Positions 57,149 to 63,379 are shown, counted from the first letter of the stretch. The stretch: 64,000 nt of DNA from a virus (IMGVR_UViG_3300025030_000042), one strand, 5' to 3'. Notes: a model not told the origin generated them from the sequence alone. Numbers and translations are program-made.

Positions 57149-57316
57149 CCACTAGTGGCTACCCGAGTAGCCGGCTAATATACTATCCGGCTTCTGGACT
57201 TGCCGGCAATTCGACAAGCCACGGAAGTTGCGAAAGCCTGGCGACTCCGTTAGCCACGGCAAACCCGATAGCCGCCTGGCTACCAGACTTGCCGTGGCTG
57301 CAGTGTTAGCCGGCTA
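57149..57316. repeat. Dense GC-rich palindrome/inverted-repeat cluster
   Basis: CCACTAGTGG, TAGCCGGCTA x2, TTGCCGGCAA, AGCCACGGCAA/TTGCCGTGGCT. Confidence 0.75.
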
Positions 57317-57821
57317 CCATCGCCTTGCGCAGCTTGCCAAGTGCCCGATGCTTTGCATTGCCTACGTCAATCTGCGAGATTCCCAGCATATCCGCGATAT
57401 CCTTGTTACGCTCGCCATTCAAGATCCACGTGAGCAAGCATTGCTCGTACTCGCTGAGAGACTGCATCGCCCTGCGGAGCCTATCAGAGTCCACTGCCGA
57501 TGCTAGTGCCTCTTCTGGCGTATTGGACTCGTCTGCTACTGCTGCCGCTTGATCGTCGCCTGCCACGGTCCTACGATGGCTGGCGCCCCGCAGATGGTCC
57601 ATGGTCGTCTGATATGCGACCATACCGCACCATGTTCCGAGCGATGCGCCACGGCTCGGATCGTACTTGTCAAGGGTTCCCTCGGCGAGTCTGAGGTATG
57701 TTGCTTGCACGCAATCATCACGATCCTGCAGGCGATTGAACTTGGCAAGCTGCTTGCTTACCAGGCCACAGATCAAGCCGTGGTATTTGCTGGCGACGGT
57801 CTGGAGGTTGGCAGTTTCCAT
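57306..57821 (-). CDS. ECF-type sigma70-family RNA polymerase sigma factor
   Basis: Region 2 DDCVQATYLRL..KYDPSRG.SLGTW...VAYQTTMDHLR; region 4 LSEYEQ...RNKDIADMLGISQIDVGNAKHRALGKLRK. Confidence 0.88.
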   Translation of the reverse strand: METANLQTVASKYHGLICGLVSKQLAKFNRLQDRDDCVQATYLRLAEGTLDKYDPSRGASLGTWCGMVAYQTTMDHLRGASHRRTVAGDDQAAAVADESNTPEEALASAVDSDRLRRAMQSLSEYEQCLLTWILNGERNKDIADMLGISQIDVGNAKHRALGKLRKAMVAG

Positions 57822-57856
57822 TGTCGATCCCTTTCGTTTCGTTAGCGTCTGTAGCT

Positions 57857-57885
57857 ACTATGAACGATAGAGAATCGGTTGTCAA
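57857..57885 (-). promoter_or_regulatory. sigma70-type promoter of the ECF gene
   Basis: TTGACA-N17-CATAGT, upstream A/T tracts, AAAGGGA RBS downstream. Confidence 0.7.
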
Positions 57886-57950
57886 GCGTCAAAAGAAAAG
57901 TTTTTTCTCTATAGGCGCCCCGCAGAGACGTTTTCTGGAGTCGGGTGTTC

Positions 57951-58244
57951 TTATCGGGACCCTCGAAAAAAACGGTTATTCGCTCGAAGCCTACCGTGCT
58001 GAGACCGCTCGTAATGCTCGAGTGCCTGCGCAAGCTCCGAGCCTACGCGCCGCTCGTAAACGTCCCTGGCGAGCCATAGGAACGCCTGGCGTACCTCGGG
58101 AGTCAGCACGATCCCCGTTGCCCGATGGCGCCATACCTCGTGGCGAACATCCGATCGGGCGCGCCGGGCGGCCCACAAGCCGAGACAGACGGCGAGGAAT
58201 CCAACGGCGAGGGAAAGCGCAACAATCATTTCGATGGGATTCAT
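57951..58244 (-). CDS. Single-TM hypothetical protein
   Basis: AAAGGA RBS after motif copy 1. Confidence 0.7.
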   Translation of the reverse strand: MNPIEMIVALSLAVGFLAVCLGLWAARRARSDVRHEVWRHRATGIVLTPEVRQAFLWLARDVYERRVGSELAQALEHYERSQHGRLRANNRFFRGSR

Positions 58245-58276
58245 TGTTTATCGTCCTTTGTTGGTTCGTTCGCGAA

Positions 58277-58304
58277 GTTATACGATCGCCGCTGGGATTT
58301 ATTT
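58277..58304 (-). promoter_or_regulatory. Bipartite motif copy 1
   Basis: AAATAAA-N10-GATCGTATAAC. Confidence 0.82.
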
Positions 58305-58336
58305 GCTGCCGGGCACAAGAAAAAAGAACATTAACG

Positions 58337-58549
58337 CTATCCGTTCGATAGCGTTAATCGCTTCGAATCAAGTACATCGCATGCTCTGAGGAACCTATCC
58401 CGGTCGAATCGCGGGTTATCCACTTGGAATAGATCGGCTACATTGCCGATAATGCGCCAGATTGCCTTATCAGCGTCGGATCCTTCGTTTTCCAATATCA
58501 GCTCATGACGAAACATATCCGCAAACTTCTGATAGTCCTTTTTTGTCAT
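58337..58549 (-). CDS. MTKKDY...RFDRDRFLxAC family protein
   Basis: Paralog of 58982; start trimmed. Confidence 0.75.
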   Translation of the reverse strand: MTKKDYQKFADMFRHELILENEGSDADKAIWRIIGNVADLFQVDNPRFDRDRFLRACDVLDSKRLTLSNG

Positions 58550-58576
58550 CGGGAAGCCTTTCGTTGGGTTCGAAGG

Positions 58577-58604
58577 GTTATACGATCGTGCTAAAGGTTT
58601 ATTT
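58577..58604 (-). promoter_or_regulatory. Bipartite motif copy 2
   Basis: AAATAAA-N10-GATCGTATAAC. Confidence 0.82.
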
Positions 58605-58644
58605 GCTGCCGGACACAAGAAAAAAGAACACTTGATTAAGATCT

Positions 58645-61471: not shown

Positions 61472-61503
61472 TGTTGTCTTCTTTCGTTTATGTGTTGTGG
61501 TGG

Positions 61504-61531
61504 GTTATACGATCAATGCTGGAATTTATTG
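61504..61531 (-). promoter_or_regulatory. Bipartite motif copy 8
   Basis: CAATAAA-N10-GATCGTATAAC. Confidence 0.8.
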
Positions 61532-61948
61532 CCGATAAATGAAGAACATTTCGCCGTCAAGTTCCGCTTCGTTTTCCTCGCCGTCATAACCTGAAATGAA
61601 ATGCCCTCTGCCATCGGCAGAAATCGCATCATTGACAAAGTGATCAAAATCCTTGATCAGCGCTCGGATCGTATCGTTGGCATCCTCGCACTTTTCCTTT
61701 TGAAACGATTGAATCATTTTCTCCGCTTCCAAGGGTAGATCCGTATGTGACAGAATGAAACCGGTATTGAATGCCCAAAAACTTTGCTCGATTTGTTCCC
61801 TGCAACGCGTATTGGCTTCGTCATTGGTCAACACAAGAAAGTTTTCCCGTTCGCCGGAAACTTCAAAGCAATCGCTATCATAATCGTTTCGTGAAACATC
61901 CTCAAGATCACAATCGAGAAACTTTGCGAGGGCTTTTGCTTTTGTCAT
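61526..61948 (-). CDS. Acidic hypothetical phage protein
   Basis: FLVLTNDEA; ADGRGHFISGYDGEENE. Confidence 0.72.
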   Translation of the reverse strand: MTKAKALAKFLDCDLEDVSRNDYDSDCFEVSGERENFLVLTNDEANTRCREQIEQSFWAFNTGFILSHTDLPLEAEKMIQSFQKEKCEDANDTIRALIKDFDHFVNDAISADGRGHFISGYDGEENEAELDGEMFFIYRQ

Positions 61949-61995
61949 TGGATTAAAACCTTTTGGGCGAATACTTGATATAGCTTGCGTGGCAT
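61945..61995 (-). pseudogene. 16-codon remnant of a 63615-type gene
   Basis: MPRKLYQVFAQKVLIQ; 23 nt identical to 63978-64000. Confidence 0.65.
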
Positions 61996-62025
61996 TTGAA
62001 AAACCTTTGTTGTGGTGTTCGAAGG

Positions 62026-62053
62026 GTTATACGATCAAACTGCGGATTTATTT
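62026..62053 (-). promoter_or_regulatory. Bipartite motif copy 9
   Basis: AAATAAA-N10-GATCGTATAAC. Confidence 0.82.
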
Positions 62054-62400
62054 TGTTCGTTTTCGACCTGTTCGACAACATCGCTCTCACTCTCACTCTC
62101 ACTCTCACTCTCACTCTCACTCTCACTCTCACTCTCACTCTCACTCTCACTCTCATATTTTGCTACGATCGATTCGGCGCGCGCGATGGCTTGTCCGTAT
62201 GCAGAATTTGGACCATTATATCGCGAGTCCACTTCCGTTGCTATGCGAATCTTTTTTAGGATACAACGCGATCGAATGTTTTTCAATGCTCCAAGTGTCG
62301 AATCGATAATCAAAACCCATACATTGCGATTGCGCACATATCCTCGCGCCCTACCGTGACTTGGAGCGCTGGGAGTATAAATAACCATTTCAAATCGCAT
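62035..62400 (-). CDS. Hypothetical protein with (ES)12 tract
   Basis: AAAGGA RBS after copy 10. Confidence 0.65.
   Translation of the reverse strand: MRFEMVIYTPSAPSHGRARGYVRNRNVWVLIIDSTLGALKNIRSRCILKKIRIATEVDSRYNGPNSAYGQAIARAESIVAKYESESESESESESESESESESESESDVVEQVENEQNKSAV
62084..62155. repeat. Perfect hexamer microsatellite (CTCTCA)12
   Basis: Directly visible. Confidence 0.97.
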
Positions 62401-62425
62401 TGTGCTTGTTCCTTTGCTGCGGTGT

Positions 62426-62941
62426 TCAATGAGTTATACGATCGTCGACATATTTTCTTTTGAAGAATCTTTCGAGTCCTACCTTAAAAAAGAAATTGTG
62501 ATCAATGTCATTTGCTTTATAGGTTTCGCGCATACAATTAAAAAGAACATGGCTTAACTCGTGAATAAATGTAATGTATAGTTTATATTCCGTGCCGTTG
62601 GAGATTTTGATCGTTCTTTCATATGGTATCGTAACTCCGTTACATTGTTCAACATTATCTGAACACAGCACTGAATCTGAATCAAAGAATGTTATCTGTG
62701 TTATCGGAAGTTCTTCGTTTGCCATACAATCGAGCGTGGCATCATTAAAAACATTTCTCCAGAAATCAAGCGTTTCTTTTGTCCACACTTCGATCATTGT
62801 CTGCTTTGGACCGTTGATATTCTCCAATTTAACGTTCGAACCGTAACTTGTTCTATAGATATGATACGGTTCGATCGGATCGATTATTTCACAGCCGACA
62901 CAACAAATAACCACAATCAAAATATTTTGTTTATTGACCAT
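62426..62941 (-). CDS. Putative lipoprotein zinc metallopeptidase
   Basis: MVNKQNILIVVICCVGC signal; FIHELSH. Confidence 0.6.
   Translation of the reverse strand: MVNKQNILIVVICCVGCEIIDPIEPYHIYRTSYGSNVKLENINGPKQTMIEVWTKETLDFWRNVFNDATLDCMANEELPITQITFFDSDSVLCSDNVEQCNGVTIPYERTIKISNGTEYKLYITFIHELSHVLFNCMRETYKANDIDHNFFFKVGLERFFKRKYVDDRITH
62433..62460 (-). promoter_or_regulatory. Bipartite motif copy 10
   Basis: AAAGAAA-N10-GATCGTATAAC. Confidence 0.78.
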
Positions 62942-63320
62942 AGACATTACCCTTGAAAACATAAAGATCATAAGATCCAAAAGACTTTGATTTTTCCGAA
63001 AGTTTGTCTCCCAATTCCCCAAGTCCACGATCCCAGAACCCTGCGCCATGGCCATTGCGCGTCAACCAAAAATCGTGTCCAGCGTGGCTTTCATCGTATT
63101 CCTCATAATATTCCATAAGTTCGACTTTTGCATACTCTTGAAAATCTTCACATTCCTTGATCATTTTTTTTAGAATCTTTGAATCAATATCCTCAATTCC
63201 ATAGTTATCTTCTAGTGATGCTTCCATTTCGCCGTCTTCCGACCATTCGGTCGAAGACCATAAAGCACGCTCAAGATAGCCTGTCACAAAATCACTTAGA
63301 TTATCAAGATCGATCGTCAT
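62931..63320 (-). CDS. Hypothetical phage protein
   Basis: GYLERALWSS; AGHDFWLTRNGHGAGFWDRG. Confidence 0.75.
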   Translation of the reverse strand: MTIDLDNLSDFVTGYLERALWSSTEWSEDGEMEASLEDNYGIEDIDSKILKKMIKECEDFQEYAKVELMEYYEEYDESHAGHDFWLTRNGHGAGFWDRGLGELGDKLSEKSKSFGSYDLYVFKGNVYGQ

Positions 63321-63351
63321 TTTGTTTCTCGCTTGTTGGGTTGCTTGTGGA

Positions 63352-63379
63352 GTTATACGATCGAACCTGGAGATTATTC
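63352..63379 (-). promoter_or_regulatory. Bipartite motif copy 11
   Basis: GAATAAT-N10-GATCGTATAAC. Confidence 0.78.

Follow-up and report, generated by a model that had tools for sequence, protein, structure and literature searches.

Phage-encoded sigma factors such as SPO1 gp28 and T4 gp55 redirect the host core polymerase, and at T4 middle promoters a MotA box is combined with a sigma70 -10 element together with AsiA. Private promoters, few in number and strongly conserved, are read by the sigmas of phiEco32 and phage 7-11 (PMC4331800), while T4-type PeSL cassettes are repeated promoter-leader units of ~50-100 nt that stand before orphan genes (PMC2839356, PMC4122927). Extracytoplasmic function (ECF) sigmas, for their part, read promoters that stay near consensus, as exemplified by the TGAAAC-N16-CGTA of sigmaW (PMC5758882), and their holoenzymes prefer C-14/G-13 directly before a 6-nt -10 element (PMC6372665). 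Here we analysed a stretch of 64,000 nucleotides of the viral sequence IMGVR_UViG_3300025030_000042 (hereafter the window, with positions counted from its first letter), in which an earlier note, made from the sequence alone, had described a phage ECF sigma gene beside an 11-copy bipartite promoter array. The gene was found to encode a 171-aa ECF-like sigma and to close an array of 18 co-oriented, near-identical promoter cassettes placed before small genes, and in our estimation the prospect that this sigma reads the array is somewhat better than even.

The fundamental properties of the locus agree in part with those of each of the systems above. As in phiEco32, with its sigma gp36, and in phage 7-11, it has a small phage protein of the sigma-70 family, near-identical non-host promoters and a sigma gene expressed, here by prediction, by the host (PMC4331800). 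Whereas the phiEco32 and 7-11 sigmas serve middle or late genes, structural genes included, from few single-box promoters, the array motif is bipartite, occurs 18 times in 10.6 kb and precedes none but small genes whose function is unknown, and a late-type sigma candidate is encoded separately, elsewhere in the genome. The likeness to PeSL cassettes (PMC2839356, PMC4122927) lies in the repeated promoter-leader unit before orphan genes, in a terminator hairpin that precedes one copy or more, in gene exchange at a cassette and in duplications ending inside cassettes. Unlike the PeSL promoters, which carry the host sigma70 consensus and an integral stem-loop, the array promoter is non-canonical (AAATA / CG-TATAAC), hairpins are found at few copies only, the array ends in a sigma gene of its own, and the entire block stands out as an island in base composition. 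The two-domain sigma, the CGT(A) and its 16-nt spacing to an A-rich -35 box recall sigmaW (PMC5758882) and Mycobacterium tuberculosis sigmaL (CG at -14/-13, 6-nt -10; PMC6372665), and promoters near consensus and a possible positive autoregulation are likewise shared with ECF regulons. The locus departs from these regulons in having T for the C of AAC in its -35 box, no fixed anti-sigma partner, an immediate sigma promoter of host type instead of the sigma's own motif, and a sigma that reaches the cut-off of no specific subfamily model. With T4 middle promoters it shares a sigma70-like -10 element and a phage-specific box replacing the -35; it differs from them in the C that mostly occupies -7 and in that none of 20 array proteins matches MotA or AsiA. 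Two known kinds of system, the phage sigma with private promoters and the PeSL-like orphan-gene cassette, are here combined in a new arrangement.

The window forms part of an AT-rich phage genome of ~211 kb from groundwater, in which the array and the sigma gene make up a GC-richer module of ~12 kb. The downstream 6 kb of this module lie in the window and comprise the following features, with the basis of each in parentheses.

57252..57299, minus strand: GC-rich hairpin with a ~22-bp stem, a few bases past the sigma stop (folding)
57306..57821, minus strand: sigma gene, 171 aa, two-domain ECF-like, 58% GC (Pfam, TIGR02937, fold search)
57857..57885, minus strand: sigma-gene promoter, host-type TTGACA-N17-CATAGT with an array-like leader (conserved in relatives)
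57951..58244, minus strand: 97-aa gene with an N-terminal membrane helix, last gene of the array (open reading frame)
58277..58304, minus strand: promoter cassette 1, AAATA-N12-GATCGTATAAC (motif searches)
58330..58358, minus strand: intrinsic terminator, 12-bp stem and U-run, directly upstream of cassette 1 (z = -4.5)
58337..63320, minus strand: block of small co-oriented genes behind cassettes 2-11 (open reading frames)
58577..58604, minus strand: promoter cassette 2 (motif searches)
59217..59244, minus strand: promoter cassette 3 (motif searches)
59930..59957, minus strand: promoter cassette 4 (motif searches)
60382..60409, minus strand: promoter cassette 5 (motif searches)
60757..60784, minus strand: promoter cassette 6 (motif searches)
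61184..61211, minus strand: promoter cassette 7 (motif searches)
61504..61531, minus strand: promoter cassette 8, -35 box CAATA (motif searches)
62026..62053, minus strand: promoter cassette 9, part of a 70-nt duplicate (motif searches, repeat family D7)
62433..62460, minus strand: promoter cassette 10, -35 box AAAGA (motif searches)
63352..63379, minus strand: promoter cassette 11, -35 box GAATA, with seven more beyond the window end (motif searches)

The proteins encoded behind cassettes 2-11 measure 70, 68, 127, 130, 90, 57, 86, 140, 121 and 129 aa, and a few more genes lack a cassette of their own.

The earlier note had placed an invariant minus-strand motif at 11 sites, and an exact-match search for GATCGTATAAC bore out every coordinate; 0.02 copies are expected in the window, and none of 100 shuffles reached 11. 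Allowing one mismatch added a single plus-strand CATCGTATAAC at 60115, inside the array, and returned zero sites in positions 1-57000, so that the reported absence of the motif from the first 57 kb holds for both searches. The bipartite pattern AAATA-N15-CGTATAAY retrieved those 11 sites only (8 exact and 3 with one mismatch; 0.66 expected). The AAATAAA-like box previously noticed 10 nt upstream was thus confirmed, with AAATA as its core and its spacing fixed, and the previous counts of TGAAAT-N16-CGTA in copies 3 and 7 and GCAAAT-N16-CGTA in copies 1 and 2 were correct. When the sequence beyond the window end was included, as read from locus L021, which reaches 19.5 kb upstream of the sigma gene, the whole array amounted to 18 co-oriented copies (ATCGTATAAY) across 10.6 kb, and zero bipartite copies were present in the 7.5 kb on its far side.

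Ungapped alignment of the 18 copies revealed AAATA, a 12-nt spacer of low information and then tcGATCGTATAAC. The cassette unit accordingly reads AAATA-N12-GATCGTATAAY, in which 17 nt separate AAATA from the hexamer TATAAY and the GATCG preceding the hexamer is invariant. The final base of the hexamer (position -7) is C in 15 copies and T in the other 3 (TATAAC vs TATAAT), whereas the A at -11 is kept in all 18. Downstream of it follow nCnnCGAAC, whose seventh nucleotide is A in 13 of the 18 copies and a purine in 15, a leader rich in A (41%) and C (26%), an AAAGG ribosome site and an ATG. Within the window, the ATG lies 21-33 nt downstream of the copy, with a leader and an AAAGG-type ribosome site, in 10 of 11 cases; the claim that every copy is followed by these elements therefore holds with the exception of that at 62026, which leads into a 16-codon remnant reading frame with a stop overlapping the start codon of the 140-aa gene (ATGA). 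The statement that almost all small genes possess a copy each is roughly correct: the window has 11 promoters to ~13-14 genes, and the complete array 18 to ~27. A repeat finder restricted the similarity between copies to units of ~50 nt, in which the boxes are near-invariant and the 12-nt spacer and flanks variable. Such conservation of two boxes at a fixed spacing around a variable spacer is the signature of a sigma-type promoter and not of simple duplication.

Pattern searches elsewhere yielded isolated matches. In IMG/VR only 8 were found, each single and chance-like, and AAATA-N12-GATCGTATAAY occurred as at least 119 singletons in metagenomes and at least 120 in genome collections; the two-copy loci among the matches listed were unrelated, that in L066, for example, being a coding repeat. 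An Rfam search of 54-64 kb gave nothing over threshold.

The 171-aa protein matched Pfam Sigma70_r2 over residues 12-81 and Sigma70_r4_2 over residues 113-164, and hence consists of sigma2 and sigma4 only, with neither region 1.1 nor region 3, joined by a disordered linker of ~30 residues. It scored 73.5 bits with TIGR02937 against a cut-off of 42.9, and its C-terminal half also matched the SigB/F/G and FliA models. The best sequence match in the PDB was M. tuberculosis SigL (E = 5e-4), and the nearest folds of a modest structural model (pLDDT 66) were the full-length ECF sigmas SigH, SigL, SigK, AlgU, RpoE and SigW. Pfam, TIGR02937 and the nearest folds thus support the proposed identity in the form of a two-domain ECF-like sigma. 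The family is an orphan one: among 1.84 billion representatives only its own cluster fell below 1e-30, the next matches were generic ECF sigmas at E ~1e-12 and ~32% identity, and the next-best distant homologue sits on a contig of 646 bp. A tblastn search against 50,697 phage records returned no match, and the protein itself was present on 24 contigs from groundwater and soil metagenomes.

No anti-sigma domain was matched, and nothing is encoded downstream of the sigma gene before the convergent hairpin. The candidacy of the 97-aa membrane protein as an anti-sigma was weakened by the related contig L019, which has an unrelated 65-aa gene instead, so that the sigma has no fixed partner. Some 1.3 kb ahead of the window (L263, 8457-9173), a second sigma-like gene encodes a 238-aa protein with weak region-2 similarity to the array sigma (pairwise E = 0.001) and no Pfam or PHROG match. 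A TCTATTTA motif stands 8 nt past the stop of this gene, followed by a near-leaderless start, and the protein is a candidate late sigma.

Upstream of the sigma gene, TTGACA-N17-CATAGT is followed by an array-like leader, and this is the only TTGACA-type exception among the module genes. At the same site three relatives carry TTGACA-N17-CATAGT, TTGACA-N17-CATACT and TTGACT-N17-CATCAT within diverged flanks, and a TTGAC(A/T)-N17-CATAGT-like sigma-gene promoter is hence kept in all four known lineages. Intergenic exact TTGACA promoters with a good -10 element were also found in the AT-rich part of the window, for example at 50286 (12/12 with TG), 55362 and 34014. The presence of such canonical promoters, together with the conserved one before the sigma gene, suggested that the host enzyme most likely reads the canonical consensus, and the sigma gene is most likely built for reading by this enzyme.

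At the other end of the sigma gene, a region of 121 nt has a folding energy of -62.3 kcal/mol (z = -5.4), which none of 200 shuffles equalled. The hairpin after the sigma stop, situated at the convergent end with the plus-strand AT-rich genes and having no U-tract, may act as a terminator. No significant structure intervenes between the 97-aa and sigma genes (z = 0.01), and because no terminator separates the last cassette (58277) from the sigma gene, a sigma that reads the cassettes would amplify its own synthesis. A 360-bp non-coding stretch with direct repeats of ~105/209 bp also occurs in the block (58619-58981, minus strand), between two paralogous genes starting with MTKKDYQ. It contains two host-type TTGACT-N16-TATCAT copies in the orientation of the array (58939-58912 and 58730-58703), and could be a host-driven source of early transcription towards the sigma gene or a small RNA gene.

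In the mechanism we favour, the host polymerase with its housekeeping sigma would transcribe the phage sigma gene from TTGACA-N17-CATAGT. The phage sigma would then bind the host core polymerase and fire the 18 cassettes, each driving one or two small genes, and transcription would start at the A of CGAAC, 7 nt downstream of the hexamer. Read-through from the last cassette into the sigma gene would provide positive feedback. Housekeeping sigmas tolerate C at -7 poorly, and the TTGACA-type promoter candidates listed for the phage all end in T. The predominance of C at -7, together with the alternation of C and T between orthologous promoters of the relatives, thus favours an alternative sigma over the housekeeping one, as does the -35 box of the cassettes, which matches TTGACA at no more than two of six positions (best register CAAATA). 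C-14/G-13 and CGTA are present in 18 of the 18 cassettes, and such an invariant pair favours a reader of the ECF type; the CGTA lies 16 nt from an AAAT/AAAC-type -35 box, which is the spacing of sigmaW promoters. Furthermore, if the sigma were produced by the host enzyme and everything else in the module by the sigma, one would expect a TTGACA-type promoter before the sigma gene alone, as is the case. Since the second sigma-like gene adjoins a different motif, the array sigma and the array motif are left as a natural pair, for which the sigmas of phiEco32 and phage 7-11 with their private promoters provide a precedent.

Three homologues of the sigma, with 78-80% identity, were found on short contigs of one metagenome-assembled genome (L018, L019 and L020), where 12 motif copies on 9 kb adjoin the sigma genes; sigma and motif therefore co-occur in all three related contigs. 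The region 2 and region 4.2 segments of the three homologues are identical to those of the present sigma.

Several observations weigh against reading of the cassettes by the phage sigma. The identity of the recognition regions in all homologues means that the relatives exhibit co-occurrence and not co-variation. The subfamily and equivalog sigma models all scored far under their own cut-offs, only the superfamily model TIGR02937 passing, and the sigma4 recognition helix GISQIDVGNAKHRALGKLR looks more group 3-like than typical of ECF sigmas. The AAC typical of ECF promoters is absent in register from the -35 box of all 18 cassettes; a GGAAT-type -35 box occurs in sigmaR-type promoters. The hexamer matches TATAAT at five of six positions (all six in 3 copies) at the canonical 17-nt spacing, and the upstream array edge bears a divergent promoter with a perfect TTGACA 16 nt from ATCGTATAAT, so that this -10 context is evidently usable by a housekeeping sigma. 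In addition, the A-rich tract from -45 to -32 might act in the manner of an UP element, the sigma gene occupies the extreme downstream end, where a last early gene that serves a later class would be anticipated, and the motif was examined over ~83 kb of the 211-kb genome (the window and the fetched loci).

The best-surviving alternative is that the host housekeeping holoenzyme alone reads the cassettes as strong immediate-early promoters and the phage sigma directs some other, later class. The TATAAY would then be the -10 element, with the A-rich tract acting like an UP element or as an atypical -35, in the manner of T4 early, SPO1 host-takeover and PeSL promoters. We consider this unlikely. 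Its strength lies in the near-consensus hexamer 17 nt from the upstream box, in the pairing of ATCGTATAAT with a perfect TTGACA at the array edge, in the position of the sigma gene at the downstream end of the block and in an architecture like that of the host-read PeSL cassettes (PMC2839356). However, the C at -7 in 15 of 18 copies toggles freely with T, the cassettes have no TGn extended -10, and the -35 match stays at two of six or below although the phage uses exact TTGACA elsewhere. The same alternative leaves the invariant CG at -14/-13 unexplained, and no third promoter class on which the sigma might act was seen in the window. A sigma28-type reading of the cassettes, TAAA-N15-GCCGATAA, was also tried and rejected on spacing (13 nt against 17).

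Sigma appropriation of the kind known from T4 middle promoters, in which the housekeeping sigma would occupy TATAAY while a phage activator, possibly with an anti-sigma4 co-factor, would bind AAATA, is improbable. It would account for a conserved non-TTGACA box exactly at -35 combined with a sigma70-like -10, and the many small uncharacterised early proteins offer candidates for the activator; none of the 20 array proteins scanned, however, matches any Pfam family, MotA and AsiA included. The C at -7 is as unfavourable here as for the housekeeping holoenzyme alone, and the dedicated sigma next door is the simpler reader.

That an infection-induced host ECF-type envelope-stress sigma reads the cassettes, with the phage sigma as a mimic or back-up, is very unlikely: nnAAAT-N16-CGTA does resemble the sigmaW-type TGAAAC-N16-CGTA, but the phage sigma has no close cellular relative, its next matches standing at E ~1e-12, and the matches listed in the genome and metagenome scans were scattered chance singletons and included no host regulon. 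Equally hard to credit is that the repeats are no promoters at all but serve chiefly in recombination or as targets of a repressor or another DNA-binding protein, with a few host-type promoters transcribing the block, since the gene swap at a cassette, the exact 70-nt duplication and the TTGACT-N16-TATCAT sites within the block, all of which suit it, are set against a fixed two-box geometry with sigma-like spacing, a purine where transcription would be expected to begin (15 of 18 copies), the position of every copy on the coding strand directly before leader, ribosome site and ATG, and at least one copy directly after an intrinsic terminator.

Besides their putative role as promoters, the cassettes coincide with sites of gene exchange. 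The cassette with the upstream sequence ttcttttttcttgtgcc.ggc.gcaaataaa stands before the membrane-protein gene in the window, L018 and L020, and before the unrelated 65-aa gene in L019; in L020 the 65-aa gene, lacking a cassette, lies between the membrane-protein gene and the sigma gene. This is the one clear case of cassette-bounded gene replacement, and the relatives are short contigs. An exact 70-nt duplication (repeat family D7) begins at the -10 box and comprises this box, the leader and the first 13 codons; it is seen at 61949-62036 in the window and at 13316-13385 and 15328-15397 of L021, and its window copy leaves the 16-codon remnant reading frame. Two independent assemblies, L011 and L012, break inside this repeat, starting at positions 15324 and 15343 of L021. 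The paralogous 68-aa (58982-59188) and 70-aa (58337-58549) genes, both with an MTKKDYQ start, have a cassette each, and the relatives have one copy of the MTKKDYQ gene per contig. As far as the sequences tell, the cassettes may be homologous joints for gene exchange between related phages. This use of the cassettes as putative gene-swap joints, like the conserved host-type promoter of the sigma gene and the 18-copy length of the array, is a point that the earlier note had missed.

The module is also distinguished by its composition. The GC content is ~31% up to ~57 kb, 57-59% over the sigma and 97-aa genes and ~44% across the array. An equal GC step is present in the relatives, with 82-93% identity at the junction past the sigma gene, indicating that the GC-rich island is ancestral to the phage lineage and not a recent insertion. 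In the AT-rich part (1-57000), the observed/expected ratios of palindromes were 0.20 for CATG, 0.13 for CTAG, 0.13 for ACGT, 0.16 for AGCT, 0.15 for TGCA, 0.10 for GTAC, 0.30 for AATT, 0.30 for GGCC and 0.21 for TTCGAA, GATC being unavoided at 1.25. In the module (57150-64000), by contrast, palindromes are far less avoided, and GATC is enriched 2.9-fold and CGATCG 17.5-fold. This contrast suggests different histories of restriction avoidance in the two parts. GATC occupies -17 to -14 in every cassette. A HIP1-like palindrome behind the CGATCG enrichment was ruled out by the absence of GCGATCGC.

The assignment to a phage leans on two assemblies, both of 210,922 bp and with different start points (one being GCA_902730455.1), consistent with a phage genome that is complete and circular or permuted. 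PHROG scans of the larger reading frames for virion genes in the window were uninformative, and megablast of 57000-64000 and 34000-56000 against the 50,697 phage records gave no match. The public sequencing runs listed as containing the stretch included no RNA run. The first 33 kb of the window hold a sugar-biosynthesis cluster. In the AT-rich part by the module, a Gad2-family protein is encoded at 51256-51993 (PF26128, precomputed annotation), with an HNH endonuclease and an RNA ligase nearby.

As for the products of the array, Pfam gave no family match for the 20 proteins, and three PHROG matches were obtained, all of unknown function (phrog_1915, 15770 and 19432). The earlier description of these as host-takeover genes is thus unsupported, the label being a guess from gene position and size only. 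The 121-aa gene (62035-62400; L021 15196-15291) contains a GAGAGT tandem repeat encoding a run of Glu-Ser dipeptides, whose length differs among assemblies of one phage, the protein measuring 107, 121 or 123 aa.

A wider and more tentative picture, which we regard as possible rather than probable, is that of a self-contained private expression platform. In such a platform the host would make the orphan sigma, and the sigma would fire, and amplify itself through, 18 orthogonal cassettes that double as recombination joints; genes would be captured in an integron-like manner under phage-only control, within a GC-rich island free of the restriction-site avoidance of the genome.

If the host sigma reads the cassettes instead, the array would represent one more instance of a cassette architecture common among phage early genes. 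If the phage sigma reads them, the 18 natural promoter variants, with more in the relatives, and the 171-aa sigma would make up a ready orthogonal expression pair, and PeSL-like gene-shuffling cassettes need not depend on host promoters. A huge uncultivated phage would then have an extra tier of transcription for its accessory genes, beyond the host-type early class and the candidate late class.

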